Of a stretch of 64,000 nt of DNA, positions 3,059 through 52,433 are shown one piece after another. A program made the position numbers and the translations under genes. The first letter of the stretch is position 1. Each line of letters begins with the position of its first letter. The notes below the pieces were generated by a model, which did not search any database, had not been told where the DNA came from, and saw only the letters and a program-made list of their open reading frames with translations. This stretch comes from a virus. The DNA lies in the IMG/VR virus record IMGVR_UViG_3300028392_000038, positions 51,973 through 115,972 of that record. One strand, written 5' to 3'.

Positions 3059-3961
3059 ATGAACTTAAAGCAAACAAGAGATTACTATAATAATAAACCC
3101 GTTGAATATGTGGTGAGAGAACATTATGAGTTAATTGAAGATAATGAGTATATTCCAAGATTTTCACTTAAAAATGTTAAAGACATCGCTGATATTCCTA
3201 TCAATGAGCCTATTAAATATACTGAAGAAGTTATAAAGAAGTGTATTAAGTATGGTATGGTTATATTAATAAACTATAAAGGTGAAAAAGATTCTCATTT
3301 TGCAGGACATGAAAGGGTTGTTTACCCTATGGTTCTTGGTAAATCAACACAAGGTAAAGTTCTTTTAAGAGGGTGGCACTTAAATGGTTGGTCTGTTTCA
3401 AATAAAAGACATATTAATAAAATCTGGCGTTTATTCAGAGCTGATAGAATTCTATCTGTTACTTTCACTGGTTCTTTTTACCGTTTACCTCCAGCTGGTT
3501 ATAATATGAATGACAAAGGAATGAGAGGTGGTATTATAGTAAAAGCTGACTTTGCTCAAATTAGAAAGAATCAACAAGATTTAGTTAATAAGAATAAAAT
3601 TCAAAATAGAGAAGAGGTTACTCTTGGAGATGAACAAAGAAAATTCATAACTATTAGAGTAAAAGAAACTGATACTAAATTAGATTTAATAAAACCATTT
3701 GAAAATGCTTATATCAATAATTCTAAAGATATGGCAAATGTTAGATTATCATTTCTTAAAAGTGTTTATGGAAATAAATATGTCGCTATATTAGGAGCAC
3801 TTGGTCAACCAGGTAATACTGTTAAAATATTAACAGATAAAGGTTCTCAATTAGGAGTTTATAAAGTATTAGATTCTATTACAGGTGAGGTACTAAAAAG
3901 CATTAAAAATGTAAAAGGAAACACTATTTATGATCTTTATCTGTTTGATAAAAAAGTTTAA
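3059..3961 (+). CDS. WYL-like domain protein
   Basis: Y...ERVVYPMVLG...LRGWH...WRLFRADRI pattern typical of WYL domains. Confidence 0.55.
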   Translation: MNLKQTRDYYNNKPVEYVVREHYELIEDNEYIPRFSLKNVKDIADIPINEPIKYTEEVIKKCIKYGMVILINYKGEKDSHFAGHERVVYPMVLGKSTQGKVLLRGWHLNGWSVSNKRHINKIWRLFRADRILSVTFTGSFYRLPPAGYNMNDKGMRGGIIVKADFAQIRKNQQDLVNKNKIQNREEVTLGDEQRKFITIRVKETDTKLDLIKPFENAYINNSKDMANVRLSFLKSVYGNKYVAILGALGQPGNTVKILTDKGSQLGVYKVLDSITGEVLKSIKNVKGNTIYDLYLFDKKV

Positions 3962-10198: not shown

Positions 10199-11278
10199 AT
10201 GAAAGTAAACACCTCTCCAGTAACTTATTCATCCATCGTTGAGATTGGAGAATTAGCAGCAAAATTAGAAAAAGAAACCGGTGACAAATATCTTAAACTT
10301 CATCGTGGAGTTATGGATGTCACAACAATAGACTTGAACTCGTTTTCTCAAAAAATTGATTTCAATCAAAAGAAAATCCAACAATATGGTGGCAATGATG
10401 GTGATGCCAACCTTATTGAAACTATAAAAGATAAATTTCATCTTAAAGACCATTATGTAATGACTGTTCCTGGTGGAATGGCTACATTAGACGTAGTTAT
10501 CAACTCACTATCAGATAAAACATTCTGGGTTCCTAAATATCATTGGGGTTCTTGGAATAAGATTCTTACTATTCACGGTAAAGACATCAAAACATTTAAT
10601 GACTTTGATATTAGAAATGCTGCAGTTGGTGAAGGTGTTGTAATGTTATGTTACCCTTCAAATCCAACAGGTTATGCTCCTAAATTTGAAGACTTAAAAG
10701 CATTTGCTGATGTTTGTAAAGAAAGAAATCAAACTCTTATTCTAGACTTACCATACTATTACTTATTCAATGAAATGTCTGATAAAATCTATGAACTTTA
10801 TTCAGATAATGTTATTGTTATTTCTTCATTTTCTAAATCAGTTGGTTTATCGGGATTAAGAGTTGGTTATATCGCTACTAAGAATAAAGAATTATATGAT
10901 ACTATGAAGATTCGTTCTTTATATAAGTATAACTCTATCTCAACAATTCCTCAAGAAATTATCAATCAGTTACTTACTTCTAATCAAGGTCAAACGGCAT
11001 TTGATAATTACAGAATGAAAACAAAAGAACATGTTACAAAGAACATTCAATATTTATCAGAGAATGGTTTGTTATTTGATGAATATACGGATATTCCAAC
11101 CGGTCCATTTGCTATTATCAATAAAACTTTTGATGAATTACTTTCAGTTAAAATTTCAAGTGTTCCCCTAAATAAATTCACATTCAAAAATACTGAAGAA
11201 CATTTAAAAAACTTATCAAGAATTTCTGTATCAGTAGACCATGATTTGTTTGTGGAGTATTTTGATAGACTGAAATGA
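10199..11278 (+). CDS. PLP-dependent aminotransferase class I/II
   Basis: CYPSNPTG, ILDLPY, SFSKSVGLSGLRVG (PLP lysine). Confidence 0.88.
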   Translation: MKVNTSPVTYSSIVEIGELAAKLEKETGDKYLKLHRGVMDVTTIDLNSFSQKIDFNQKKIQQYGGNDGDANLIETIKDKFHLKDHYVMTVPGGMATLDVVINSLSDKTFWVPKYHWGSWNKILTIHGKDIKTFNDFDIRNAAVGEGVVMLCYPSNPTGYAPKFEDLKAFADVCKERNQTLILDLPYYYLFNEMSDKIYELYSDNVIVISSFSKSVGLSGLRVGYIATKNKELYDTMKIRSLYKYNSISTIPQEIINQLLTSNQGQTAFDNYRMKTKEHVTKNIQYLSENGLLFDEYTDIPTGPFAIINKTFDELLSVKISSVPLNKFTFKNTEEHLKNLSRISVSVDHDLFVEYFDRLK

Positions 11279-11287
11279 ATTAAAACT

Positions 11288-11319
11288 AAAAACCCTCTGA
11301 TTAATCAGAGGGTTTTTTT
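11288..11319. terminator. bidirectional intrinsic terminator
   Basis: AAAAACCCTCTGATT/AATCAGAGGGTTTTT between convergent genes. Confidence 0.8.
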
Positions 11320-15091: not shown

Positions 15092-15610
15092 ATGATTTTG
15101 AAAGAAAAAAGAAAACATAAAATAAACGGAGAAGTTCGCTTTCCTCAAGTTAGAGTTATAGGTGATGATGAACCAATACTGATGAGTTCATATGATGCAT
15201 TTCAATTAGCCAAATCACAAAATAAAGATATTATTTTAATAAATGAAAATCAAACAATACCTATTGTTAAAATAGAACAGTATAATAAATTCCTTTATAA
15301 CTTAGAAAAATCCGAAAAAGAAAAGAAAAAGAATTCAGTAAAGTCTGTTACTAAAGAAATTCAATTAAGTCCTGAAATATCTGACAATGACCTGGGTACC
15401 AAATCCAGAAAAAGTAAAGAGTTTTTAGAAGATGGTAATAAGGTTAAAGTTGTTTTACAATTAAAAGGTAGACAAAAGGCTTCTCCAGAAAGAGGTCAAA
15501 TAGTTATGCTTAAATTTTTTACATTAGTTGAAGAACTTGGTGTTGCTGAAAGTCTTCCTAAATTAGAAGGAAGTAAATGGCATATGATGATTAAGCCAAA
15601 GAAGAAGTAG
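15092..15610 (+). CDS. infC: translation initiation factor IF-3
   Basis: INGEVRFPQVRVI, KEIQLSPEISDNDL, FLEDGNKVKVVLQLKGRQ, PKLEG. Confidence 0.93.
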   Translation: MILKEKRKHKINGEVRFPQVRVIGDDEPILMSSYDAFQLAKSQNKDIILINENQTIPIVKIEQYNKFLYNLEKSEKEKKKNSVKSVTKEIQLSPEISDNDLGTKSRKSKEFLEDGNKVKVVLQLKGRQKASPERGQIVMLKFFTLVEELGVAESLPKLEGSKWHMMIKPKKK

Positions 15611-15653
15611 ATTTTAATTTCAAAACTTTCTTTTTTTATTTTATATAAAATGT

Positions 15654-15779
15654 ATGACTAAAGAAGAAAAAATTAAAAAGATAGAGTCATTAAGGAAACA
15701 AGCGACAGAGTTAAAAAAAGAGGTAGACTATTTTAATGCCCTCCAATTAGCCTTGAAGTTGGTACTTAATGGTTCTTAT
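15654..15779 (+). CDS. family B DNA polymerase C-terminal subunit, 5' segment (fingers helix up to motif B Tyr)
   Basis: QLALKLVLNGSY = motif B KxxxNSxYG lacking the final G. Confidence 0.85.
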
Positions 15780-15820
15780 TTTTTACCCCCTATTTTGAAA
15801 AGAATAGGGGGGAAGATTAA
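15780..15820 (+). other. 41-nt hairpin insertion (coding gap) inside polymerase motif B
   Basis: TTTTTACCCCCTATTTT-GAAA-AGAATAGGGGGGAAGATTAA between TAT (Y) and GGA (G); its removal restores NGSY-GAFATSYF in frame. Confidence 0.85.
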
Positions 15821-17131
15821 GGAGCATTTGCAACAAGCTACTTCATATTATATAATAATCACGTAGCAGGTACAATCACAGCACAAGGCCGTGACCTTAC
15901 CAAAACAATGGATAAGGTTAATGAAGACTATTGGTATAATCAATGGCAAAATGACCATGAACTTCACTATAAAATGGGTATTAAAAACATAACACCTATT
16001 TCAAAAGATGAACATGTTTCTATTTATGCTGATACAGATTCATTATTTGTTTCATTCAAACCAGCAGTAGATCATTGTGACTGGACCAATCTTATATTCA
16101 ATGATGATTATCTTAATTCAGTAGATAAAAAGTTCATCATCCTTTCTAAAGAACTTCCAAAATTCAACAATACTAATTGTGTAGGAACTGCGCATAATAT
16201 TAAAGAGTTTAGTGAACTATTAAACGCAGAACATGAGTTAGTTTTAATATGTGGTAACTTTGTTAAAGATAGAGATTTAGTAAAGATGATTAAATCTGGT
16301 TCTGTAAAGAATGAGATAAAATGGAATTGGTCTAATGAAATAGATTTCATACAAGGATTAGACCATTATAGATATGGTGGTTATTTTAAAAAGTGTTTAG
16401 AAGATTATGCTGGATCTTTTGGTGTAGAGAACAAAGAAGACTTTGAGTTAGAAAGAATATCAGAATCTATTATCAATATTGCTAAAAAGAAATACATTCA
16501 ACATATCTTATTTGAAGATGGTATTCCTTATGATAGATTAAGTTATATCTATCCTAAAGGTGTAGAACTTGTTAGGTCATCTACTCCAGCTTTTGCTAGA
16601 GATAAAATTGTTGGTATTGTTAAATATTTATTCACACATCCTGATACTTTTAATATTAAAGATTTACTAAAACTAGTTAAAGGACTAAGAAAAGAATTTG
16701 AATTGGCGGATATAGATGATATTTGTATGCAATCTTCTGTTTCTAACTATGAAATAAAAGTTCTTAATGATAAGTCATTGCCTTTAAACTTTATAAGTGG
16801 TGCTCACTTTGCGGTTAAGTCAGCAGCTCATCATAACTATCTTTTACTAAAGAGTAAAGAATATCAACAGAAATATGAGTTTATAAAATCAGGTAATAAG
16901 ATTAAATATTATTGTTGTAAAGATAAATCTATAACTGATATGTTTGCTTATACTCGTGGTTCTTTTCCGGTTGAGTTTGCTCCACCTATTGATTATGATG
17001 AACAGTTCTCTAAGTCTATCTTATCTCCTATCAATTCAATTATTGAACCATTAGGAATGCCTGAGATTACTAAAAGGTTGTCGGTGGTGATGGATATTTT
17101 CTCAGGTATGGGTGGAAAAGGAGCTTTTTAA
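15821..17131 (+). CDS. family B DNA polymerase C-terminal subunit, 3' segment (palm/thumb)
   Basis: Frame opens at GGA 15821: GAFATSYFILYNNHVAGTITAQGR, then YADTDS (motif C), AKKKY, KGVELVRSSTP. Confidence 0.9.
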   Translation, partial: GAFATSYFILYNNHVAGTITAQGRDLTKTMDKVNEDYWYNQWQNDHELHYKMGIKNITPISKDEHVSIYADTDSLFVSFKPAVDHCDWTNLIFNDDYLNSVDKKFIILSKELPKFNNTNCVGTAHNIKEFSELLNAEHELVLICGNFVKDRDLVKMIKSGSVKNEIKWNWSNEIDFIQGLDHYRYGGYFKKCLEDYAGSFGVENKEDFELERISESIINIAKKKYIQHILFEDGIPYDRLSYIYPKGVELVRSSTPAFARDKIVGIVKYLFTHPDTFNIKDLLKLVKGLRKEFELADIDDICMQSSVSNYEIKVLNDKSLPLNFISGAHFAVKSAAHHNYLLLKSKEYQQKYEFIKSGNKIKYYCCKDKSITDMFAYTRGSFPVEFAPPIDYDEQFSKSILSPINSIIEPLGMPEITKRLSVVMDIFSGMGGKGAF

Positions 17132-17934
17132 TCTTCTTTATAAACAAAGTTTTTATCCGGTATTAAATAATAATTAACTCCATTTTCATCTAATTGAGTT
17201 TTGATATCTTTTCCTTTGAAAATCCAATTACCTAGTTTTTTATTCACATCTGATATTAAAACTAAGTAGTGTGTTTTGATTTCTGTAAAATAACCGCTTA
17301 TATAAACTTTATAAAATTCACCTTCTTTATTAATAGAAGAAAGTGTTTTTGTTTGTATAGTGTATGTATTTCCTTTATAGTTAAAAGTACCATCAATACC
17401 AGCGATATCAACTTTATGAGAAGATGGTTTATCAATTGATATATCTGTTTTAAGTATTTGAGTTGCGAACTTAGAGAAAAATGTATTTGCTATTTCTTCT
17501 TGTGATTGACCTTTATCAGATGCTCCTTCTAAAGTTTTATAGATTCTCTCAAACCATTTCCCACCTGGTTCAAATAGTTTTAACTTATTAGTCTCAATCC
17601 AATCAATCATACTATCTGGTGTTGAAAATGTAGATCGCCCGTTATCAATTTCATTAGCTATCTTAATCATTTCCCAAAGTATAGCAATGTTCTTTTGAGC
17701 TTTTGTTAATAATTCAGCTCTAACTTCTCTTCCGTTACGGATTAGAATTTCATTACCACTGAAACTACCATAAATATCTCTTAATATTCTTTTAATAGCT
17801 AGTTCTTTTTTCTCTGCTTTTTCTTCAGTGAATAAGATAGGTTTACCCGCCATAAATAACTTAACTGGCTTATATGAAGCTTTGTACTTATCTTGGTAAG
17901 CCTCATTTATAAAATTTGAATACTTTTTAATCAT
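17128..17934 (-). CDS. tagged protein with possible PD-(D/E)XK nuclease C-domain
   Basis: N-terminus MIKKYSNFINE; VDIAGIDG...TIQTK. Confidence 0.5.
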   Translation of the reverse strand: MIKKYSNFINEAYQDKYKASYKPVKLFMAGKPILFTEEKAEKKELAIKRILRDIYGSFSGNEILIRNGREVRAELLTKAQKNIAILWEMIKIANEIDNGRSTFSTPDSMIDWIETNKLKLFEPGGKWFERIYKTLEGASDKGQSQEEIANTFFSKFATQILKTDISIDKPSSHKVDIAGIDGTFNYKGNTYTIQTKTLSSINKEGEFYKVYISGYFTEIKTHYLVLISDVNKKLGNWIFKGKDIKTQLDENGVNYYLIPDKNFVYKED

Positions 17935-19690: not shown

Positions 19691-19720
19691 AAAAAACCCA
19701 CTCAATTGAGTGGGTTTTTT
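19691..19720. terminator. bidirectional intrinsic terminator
   Basis: AAAAAACCCACTCAA/TTGAGTGGGTTTTTT perfect inverted repeat. Confidence 0.8.
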
Positions 19721-51970: not shown

Positions 51971-52399
51971 ATGAAATACGTTAAAACATTCGAACAGTAC
52001 TCAGTTGTAAATGAGGAAGAAATACTTGGACTTGGTAAGCTTTTCAATAAATCCACTGCTACTGAGGTAGACTTATCAAAAACTGATGATGTTAAATTAG
52101 CAGAAGCTGTTAAAAAATATTTAGACTCTACTTATGAGGGTGGTAAAATTACCAAATCTAGTAGATGGGAAATTGTTAAAAGCAATAGAAAATTAATCAC
52201 CGAATCTGGTGTACCTGCTGAGTTAGTTGATAAAGTACTTGCTGTAATAGCAATGATTCAAAAAGGATTACCTTTATTTTCATTCATTCCCGAAGTTGCT
52301 GAAAAAAATCAAAAAGGACATTTATTAACATATAATAAAGAAACTAATATGTTAAAATTTACCGCAGCTTCAGAAAAAACTGTTAATCCAAACGGATAA
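51971..52399 (+). CDS. hypothetical protein with N-terminal tag
   Basis: MKYVKTFEQYSVVNEE. Confidence 0.7.
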   Translation: MKYVKTFEQYSVVNEEEILGLGKLFNKSTATEVDLSKTDDVKLAEAVKKYLDSTYEGGKITKSSRWEIVKSNRKLITESGVPAELVDKVLAVIAMIQKGLPLFSFIPEVAEKNQKGHLLTYNKETNMLKFTAASEKTVNPNG

Positions 52400-52404
52400 T
52401 AATT

Positions 52405-52433
52405 AAACCCCCACTTATTTAGTGGGGGTTTTT
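52405..52433. terminator. intrinsic terminator between convergent genes
   Basis: AAACCCCCACT/AGTGGGGGTTT. Confidence 0.8.

Follow-up and report, generated by a model that had tools for sequence, protein, structure and literature searches.

A hairpin-containing coding gap in the split family-B DNA polymerase gene of huge phages: a candidate case of translational bypass in a homing-endonuclease cassette

How can a phage obtain an intact DNA polymerase from a gene whose motif B is broken by 41 nucleotides (nt) that do not fit the reading frame? The question is raised by a DNA stretch of 64,000 nt, positions 51,973 to 115,972 of the IMG/VR record IMGVR_UViG_3300028392_000038 (here called the window), in which the gene for the C-terminal piece of a family-B DNA polymerase (PolB-C) is interrupted between NGSY and GAF of motif B by an insert that is nearly all one hairpin. 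The window is part of a contig estimated at half a genome and derives from a large uncultured freshwater phage. The reading that we favour, at a probability of about 0.68, is a translational bypass from UAU to UAA resembling that of T4 gene 60, to which the element is unrelated in sequence; the hop itself, the landing triplet and the protection of a target site are what we infer. Comparison of related sequences favours such a ribosomal bypass over excision from the RNA. In this reading the 41 nt are the coding-gap half of a mobile cassette, made up of a homing endonuclease gene (HEG) and a hairpin and aimed at the most conserved DNA of a split polymerase. The interrupted gene has the following parts.

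15654..15779, plus strand: exon 1 of PolB-C, taken from the list of open reading frames (ORFs); 42 codons (MTKEEK...LKLVLNGSY) for the second fingers helix and the first half of motif B.
15777..15779, plus strand: proposed take-off codon, TAT for Tyr42, with which the fit to the conserved protein breaks off.
15780..15820, plus strand: coding gap of 41 nt, not a multiple of 3; the first stop in the entry frame is at 15864-15866.
15786..15811, plus strand: core hairpin, with the 5' arm at 15786-15796, a GAAA loop at 15797-15800 and the 3' arm at 15801-15811.
15818..15820, plus strand: proposed landing triplet TAA, which abuts the resume codon on its 5' side and shares its first two bases with TAT.
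15821..17131, plus strand: exon 2 of PolB-C, 436 codons and a stop, with GAFATSYF..., TITAQGR, YADTDS and the thumb; matched by Pfam PF00136 and by PHROG.

An initial annotation had described the end of NGSY, the 41 nt closing with TAA, the resumption at GAF, the stop reached on read-through and the ATG at 15908, and every detail of that description holds. The ORF starts with the ATG at 15654, the resume codons GGA GCA TTT (GAF...) run from 15821 in frame through YADTDS, and the first in-frame ATG after the gap is that at 15908. Exact removal of 15780-15820 had also been proposed to rebuild motif B, and in a scan of all deletions it is the single solution, the only one that restores the conserved ...LKLVLNGSYGAF... 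sequence. Exon 2 encodes the palm and thumb of a family-B polymerase, matching Pfam DNA_pol_B (PF00136) at 4.9e-13 and a PHROG DNA polymerase family at 4e-40. The conserved protein is thus obtained only if the 41 nt are skipped exactly, and the same is true of 31 further alleles described below.

The hairpin consists of an 11-bp stem with one G-U pair and the GAAA loop; it begins 6 nt past the take-off codon, and another 6 nt separate its end from the landing triplet. With its flanks it folds at -30 kcal/mol, compared with -14.5 +/- 3.0 for shuffled sequences (n=200; z = -5.2, no shuffle as stable), which bears out the view that nearly the whole insert is one hairpin. The motif occurs once in the window and is the sole GC-rich hairpin within a gene on the 116-kb contig.

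The insert is a genuine part of the phage DNA. In the DNA run X1, which may be the sample from which the window was assembled, a 254-nt contig at a depth of 56 (flanks 62) is identical to the window across 15614-15867, and no form without the 41 nt was seen among the contigs of this run. The gap of 41 nt is also present in L103, an independent contig from a metagenome, where it differs by two substitutions, both in the 3' spacer. Two RNA runs (X15 and X16) cover parts of the stretch, and evidence on the junction is at the level of contigs: one contig of X15, a metatranscriptome library of 2025, spans 15771-15858 and retains the hairpin. It lacks a C (15786) and a G (15807) together, so that the pairing of the stem is kept.

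The polymerase itself is encoded in two pieces. The closest relatives in GenBank are uncultured huge phages with genomes of 634-642 kb and 76% identity, and the two published genomes nearest to the window are free of the gap. In all relatives PolB-C starts with the same MTKEEK, approximately 42 codons before GAF, and the N-terminal piece, with the exonuclease and motif A, is a separate gene of about 500-515 codons, lying approximately 100 kb from the C-piece in near-complete relatives (loci L076-L079 and L082-L085). The N-piece gene is not on the contig of the window. The separate N-piece in the relatives indicates that PolB was split anciently at the tip of the fingers and that the interrupted gene is its C-piece. 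Each of the near-complete relatives (completeness 98%, 98%, 95% and 89%) encodes the PolB N-piece once and the C-piece once, the latter interrupted, and neither PolA nor the alpha subunit of Pol III was found in them. The initial annotation had named a second intact polymerase subunit, together with decay of the interrupted copy, as evidence against its reading; such a polymerase was looked for in these genomes and none was found. All gap-bearing loci have an intact exon 1, whose ratio of nonsynonymous to synonymous differences (pN/pS) is 0.27 at near-saturated synonymous sites; in exon 2 the ratio of the corresponding substitution rates (dN/dS) comes to 0.03-0.13 for pairs of gap-bearing relatives, some of which inherited their gap in common. 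Judged by these ratios, both exons are under strong purifying selection and PolB-C has stayed functional in spite of the interruption, in agreement with the earlier remark that both flanks look intact.

The gap in the window is one of many. Among 70 related loci on huge-phage contigs in which the region is present, an insert was found at 45 and was absent from 25. The inserts represent 32 distinct gaps of 36-48 nt, located at six codons within one 10-codon stretch (Ala33, Leu34, Val37, Gly40, Ser41 and Tyr42), and the TAT position of the window recurs as take-off site in 9 other Tyr-site alleles. The build is common to all: a take-off codon, a 6-nt spacer (range 5-7), a 10-bp stem (8-12), a loop of 4 nt (3-6), an A-rich spacer of 7 nt (5-14), a landing triplet and the resume codon. 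A stable stem-loop of 8-12 bp, 11 bp in the window, stands at the take-off site in 32 of 32 alleles, nearly always opening with a run of C and closing with a run of G (a GC clamp). The alignment of orthologous genes that had been suggested as a check also showed that the upper stems are fully different between alleles and yet always paired. All three length classes modulo 3 occur; nine gaps are multiples of 3 with in-frame stops, 20 of 31 alleles are beyond rescue by any single frameshift, and in 25 of 31 a stop lies 0-1 codon past the take-off codon.

The codons that bound the gaps are related to each other. Take-off and landing triplets agree at the first two bases in 25 of the 32 alleles, among them all 22 alleles at the five sites other than Tyr (CTT/CTA, GCT/GCA or GCT, GTT/GTA or GTT, GGT/GGT and TCT/TCA); the chance of five sites each matching at 1/16 is about 1e-6. 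Premature matching triplets are missing from the 3' spacers of these non-Tyr alleles (0 of approximately 165 positions, about 10 expected), and between the hairpin and the landing site of the window there is no further TA-triplet. Exact duplication of a target site would not give rise to the common third-base differences. By the wobble rules, NNU and NNA could both be decoded by one tRNA whose wobble base is U. The differences between NNT and NNA are synonymous in four-fold boxes, and they fit the use of one tRNA better than exact target-site duplication. The window, with TAT followed by TAA, keeps to this landing rule as far as a two-fold box permits.

The distribution of the gaps is patchy, their state changing at least 7 times on well-supported branches of the exon-2 tree. 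In three relatives the C5...G5 hairpin is present once per genome and in PolB-C only, and there is none in gap-free relatives; this single copy per genome rules out a dispersed mobile hairpin, similar to the mitochondrial byp elements or to miniature inverted-repeat transposable elements. A pattern scan of viral contigs for additional Tyr-site alleles gave no new locus, and a scan of metagenomes gave 8 matches, seven by chance and one real (L103). GC-rich hairpins resembling terminators occur between genes of the window at 11291-11314, 19695-19716 and 52404-52432. The first of them has a stem similar to gap hairpins in relatives (CCCTCTGATTAATCAGAGGG), a hint that gap hairpins were recruited from hairpins of the terminator type. 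The gap hairpin was rejected as a terminator itself, its T-rich 5' flank and A-rich 3' flank being the reverse of terminator order.

The gap goes together with a free-standing nuclease gene. Divergent to PolB-C and beginning about 100 nt upstream of its start, a HEG or a remnant of one is present at 28 of the 45 gap loci and at none of the 25 gap-free loci (Fisher's test 6e-8, or 2.5e-6 on distinct alleles, both ignoring phylogeny). When HEG and gap were compared by independent pairs along the tree, p was about 0.125, the pairs being too few for significance. The HEG of one relative (L004) is a 375-codon gene on the other strand, between PolB-C and the gene for initiation factor 3 (IF3), and matches Pfam DUF7487 at 1.2e-19; PHROG homing-endonuclease families, including phrog_3339, match the HEG at 3.5e-13 and 2e-5. 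We read the invariant DH...N...N block at its C-terminus as resembling an HNH motif, and an AlphaFold model with a predicted local distance difference test score (pLDDT) of 73 gave, in fold searches, weak matches to HNH nickases (Z about 3). Two clades of HEGs are separated by a fully supported branch, one accompanying gaps at the Ala, Leu and Val sites and the other those at the Gly, Ser and Tyr sites, with one long-branch exception. The latter is a HEG (L023:1740-2759, minus strand) that lies beside a Tyr-site gap, groups with the Ala/Leu/Val clade on a very long branch and may be chimeric or decaying.

The sequence upstream of PolB-C in the window corresponds to the following.

15611..15653, no strand assigned: intergenic spacer with an empty homing-endonuclease site, TTAA at 15614-15617; a HEG lies there in L103 and in a minority of the X1 population.

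The contig L103 is collinear with the window at 92-94% identity through the IF3 gene to 15617, then has an insert of about 900 nt, and from 15614 on is 99.1% identical over exon 1, the gap and the start of exon 2. The insert, at the TTAA, holds an intact 311-codon HEG of the second clade. In run X1 loose ends were found at 15614 and 15617 at a depth of 9-10, as against 56-62, and these are the edges of an HEG of the L103 type. A minority of the phage population in this sample thus carries the HEG and the majority, like the window, does not. The window keeps the gap and lacks the HEG that is present in L103 and in the X1 minority, and therefore looks like an orphaned cassette. All three states are found among phages 90-95% identical in DNA: one has neither part (L014), one the gap only (L017) and one both (L016), the last being equal to the first with 858 nt of HEG and a 39-nt gap added. 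Two phages of the same lineage as the window (L003 and L004; IF3 gene 96%, exon 2 96-98%, exon-2 protein identical or 99% identical) have a HEG of the first clade and a gap at Ala33 where the window has it at Tyr42; their exon 1 has diverged until synonymous sites are saturated, and the switch in identity falls at the gap of the window. To judge from these alignments, such patterns represent fresh gains, losses and replacements of the cassette. Presence and absence at one intergenic site in close relatives, together with flanks that appear to be co-converted, suggest a free-standing HEG. Eleven gap alleles, including that of the window, have no HEG, from which it follows that decoding cannot depend on it and that no factor encoded by the cassette is needed. 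In runs X1 and X2 a loose end before position 15821 of the window reveals a second related phage (depth of about 15 in X1) with another Tyr-site gap, of the L016 type. With this second phage in the same lake samples, several cassette alleles co-occur in one community.

The bypass that we favour may be pictured as follows. At the DNA level the insert would break the recognition sequence of the HEG, located in the invariant codons of motif B, and the genome that carries it would stay uncut. The mRNA would retain the gap. After translation of 42 codons the ribosome would stall with peptidyl-tRNA-Tyr on UAU and the GC-clamped hairpin at the mRNA entrance, where the base of the hairpin, 6 nt past the take-off codon, arrives when that codon moves into the P site; for most alleles the stall would be strengthened by a stop in or beside the A site. 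The tRNA would release its codon, the ribosome would slide past the hairpin, and the tRNA would pair again with UAA 6 nt beyond it, the first two bases matching. Decoding would resume at GGA and give one polypeptide with motif B whole (...LVLNGSY-GAFATSYF...), and ribosomes that fail to hop would make a dead-end peptide of 70 residues. It may be speculated that a weakly pairing NNU take-off codon and a Watson-Crick NNA landing triplet favour the forward direction, and that a short nascent chain still in the tunnel matters, all take-offs lying 33-42 codons from the start.

Translation in this genome seems to proceed without Shine-Dalgarno pairing, a Shine-Dalgarno-like leader having been found in 1 of 103 genes against a background of 9.5% (30 nt upstream of ORF starts, whole contig). 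Leaders of the genes are A-rich, and a box similar to TAATATATA recurs upstream of many genes, which fits a host of the Bacteroidota type. The G-run of the stem is 5-9 nt before the landing triplet in most alleles. A landing assisted by Shine-Dalgarno pairing (TAAGGAG at the landing site, with the G-run 5-9 nt upstream) was considered and is not relied on in a genome that makes no such use of the sequence. A search for tRNA genes found none in the window.

Several observations weigh against the bypass, with the Tyr site as its weak point. The allele of the window is the outlier of the family: its take-off codon is followed by TTT TTA CCC, with no stop or obviously slow codon, and the first stop comes 28 codons on. 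The landing triplet UAA is only near-cognate for tRNA-Tyr, and cognate Tyr triplets inside the gap (TAC at 15784-15786, TAT at 15791-15793) could capture the tRNA unproductively. TAT and TAA share two of three bases, and seven Tyr-site alleles match at positions 2-3 or worse. Of the other eight alleles at this site, six have AAC, GAC or AGC as landing triplet, which match at positions 2-3 (AGC by way of a G-U pair), and one has CAA with no match, so that codon matching is not universal. The rRNA-mRNA 'arrestor' that aids landing in T4 may be unavailable where Shine-Dalgarno sequences are not used. On the RNA side there is a single contig of low depth, from a relative, for which carried-over DNA or an unprocessed precursor is possible. 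The nuclease fold of the HEG was not confirmed, since a PDB sequence search, NCBIfam, Foldseek and VIA-align gave nothing decisive.

The initial annotation had offered bypass and RNA excision side by side. Bypass has since gained the support of the comparative evidence (32 alleles, their codon pairs and stops), and excision has lost ground to the point of being unlikely. It would require that a phage or host endoribonuclease recognises the hairpin and removes the 36-48 nt, a ligase then rejoining the mRNA, in effect a protein-dependent mini-intron. A structure-specific RNA enzyme would require such a compact hairpin, whose shape is conserved and whose sequence is not; codons that match imperfectly at the Tyr site present no obstacle to splicing, and a spliced minority form would be compatible with the contig-level data. 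However, excision leaves unexplained why the codons at take-off and landing should be matched or synonymous, why a stop follows directly after take-off, why premature landing triplets are absent and why the gaps are confined to codons 33-42. In addition, no Rfam family reaches its gathering score, and the lone contig from an RNA library retains the hairpin. No bacterial or phage system is known to us in which a hairpin of 40 nt is spliced out of an mRNA.

A -1 frameshift peculiar to the window is very unlikely. In this scheme ribosomes would read through the gap in the entry frame and slip at AAG (15819-15821) onto TAA, leaving an insertion of 14 residues in motif B. The entry frame of the window, unlike that of most alleles, is indeed open across the gap, and only the terminal TAA closes the target frame, so that a single shift at the last codon is formally possible. 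It would nevertheless separate two invariant residues of motif B, Tyr and Gly, by 14 foreign ones, and no slippery heptamer is found at the site. With 20 of the 31 alleles barred from rescue by a single shift, and nine of the gaps multiples of 3 containing in-frame stops, the family would need another mechanism in any case.

Equally little credit can be given to the idea that no single protein is made, the gene being either a decaying pseudogene or the source of a 42-45-residue peptide and a restarted C-terminal protein that assemble non-covalently. The enzyme is already split at the tip of the fingers, which provides a precedent for non-covalent assembly. Yet no start codon occurs in frame from the gap up to 15908, initiation at the latter position would cost 29 conserved residues, in relatives the ATGs that follow the hairpin are out of frame, and the chain would be cut at six different places inside the KxxxNGSYG helix. 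Decay is contradicted by the strong selection on both exons in at least 25 gap-bearing lineages and by the lack of any other polymerase. A self-splicing group I or group II intron was rejected, as the 41 nt contain no catalytic core; the earlier judgement that the insert is too short for one agrees with the Rfam search of 15400-16100, in which no family reached its gathering score and permissive thresholds gave chance-level matches, all far below those scores. An assembly or sequencing artefact is practically out of the question, given the full-depth DNA contig spanning the site exactly, the same gap in the independent contig L103, the compensated variant in the 2025 RNA library and the 31 other alleles from independent assemblies.

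Returning to ribosomal bypass, the closest parallel is T4 gene 60, in which a 50-nt bypass lies within the element of the homing endonuclease MobA (Huang 1988; Bonocora 2011; as reviewed in Manning and Atkins, bioRxiv 10.1101/2022.08.31.505936). As far as the cited accounts go, immunity of the carrier has been shown experimentally for MobA and the gene 60 gap, take-off is at codon 46, and premature landing triplets are depleted. In both systems an essential gene of DNA metabolism already split in two carries, 33-46 codons into the second piece and presumably with the nascent chain mostly in the exit tunnel, a gap of tens of nt with a stable tetraloop hairpin, largely matched codons and usually a stop or slow codon after take-off. 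A free-standing HEG lies directly upstream, the gap accompanies every HEG and is also found after HEG loss, and the distribution among close relatives is patchy and recent. The differences are equally numerous. The gap here is in motif B of PolB and not in the Toprim domain of a topoisomerase, and both its sequence and the HEG are unrelated to those of T4; the matches listed for the HEG (15 of 18 tblastn records) are to huge phages and a few coliphages, with no T4-like phage among them. The hairpin starts 6 nt past the take-off codon and fills most of the gap, whereas the T4 stem contains the take-off codon. Insertion sites number six instead of one or two, and the nucleases fall into two clades; the split of the gene is ancient and not beside the nuclease; Shine-Dalgarno sequences are not used; and the window lands on a stop triplet with no stop after take-off. 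Bypass is an experimental fact in T4 and a deduction here. According to the 2022 survey of Manning and Atkins (bioRxiv 10.1101/2022.08.31.505936), homologues of the gene 60 element occur only in topoisomerase genes, and all phage cases form one homologous cassette in a single gene. The polymerase cassette seems to work like the MobA/gene 60 element without being a homologous member of it, as far as sequences can tell.

The second comparison is with the byps of Magnusiomyces capitatus mitochondria, described as elements of 27-55 nt with 81 copies in 12 genes that spread like GC clusters (Lang 2014; Nosek 2015). According to the same accounts, these share with the polymerase gaps (36-48 nt) their shortness, a GC-rich hairpin in an AT-rich genome, a location in essential genes and matched take-off and landing codons with tolerated deviations. 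Unlike the byps, the phage gap is present in one copy per genome, in PolB-C only, moves with a HEG and is subject to bacterial-type and not mitochondrial translation.

A third likeness is to fractured genes, inteins, group I introns and split inteins, which also combine a selfish nuclease in the most conserved DNA of replication genes with a device that keeps the product intact. The gap differs from them in being 41 nt long, with neither protein splicing nor self-splicing RNA, no Rfam match and no coding capacity. The same PolB-C gene does carry inteins or a split intein at motif C in relatives, where it is further broken within YADTD|S (loci L041-L043 at about 3550-3700, L049, L053, L057 and L068-L070). 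In some relatives the insert is in frame, intein-like and ends in ...VHN before S/T. L041-L043 have a pair of ORFs there, one ending in ...IIHN* and the next starting with Met and ending in ...LVHN|TDS, an arrangement that resembles a split intein. What seemed to be another interruption in L060, L062 and L064-L066 proved to be merely a shorter protein.

In the literature cited here, efficient ribosome hopping over tens of nt is known from two natural systems only, and literature searches returned no description of gaps in PolB. Next to T4 gene 60 and the mitochondria of Magnusiomyces, the polymerase gap would on the whole probably be the third independent natural system of long-range bypass; it would act in huge phages whose hosts make no use of Shine-Dalgarno pairing and would have a HEG family of its own. 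Its rules, as drawn from at least 32 alleles at six codons, would be spacers of 6 nt before and 7 nt after a GC-clamped hairpin of 10 bp, with take-off on NNU and landing on NNA, and the peptidyl-tRNA-Tyr of the window would land on UAA with no stop at take-off. If this is true, a second, unrelated phage cassette exists, and the combination of a nuclease with a bypass gap is a recurrent route into essential genes. The dozens of natural variants would then be a ready mutational series on what a hop needs in terms of hairpin position, codon pairs and a stop after take-off, and the system could test bypass without Shine-Dalgarno pairing. Such genes of huge phages are currently annotated as broken or truncated polymerases.

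As to the neighbourhood of the gene, a phage-encoded IF3 (15092-15610, plus strand; Pfam IF3_N at 5e-15 and IF3_C at 1.8e-25) lies directly upstream of PolB-C. It adjoins PolB-C in several gap-free as well as gap-bearing relatives and thus does not correlate with the gap. On the other side a 268-codon ORF (17128-17934, minus strand) is convergent with PolB-C and overlaps its end by 4 nt; it belongs to no Pfam, PHROG or NCBIfam family and has weak, patchy homologues at the same place in relatives. Further upstream, at 10199-11278 on the plus strand, the phage genome carries a class I/II aminotransferase gene (Pfam, 1e-26).

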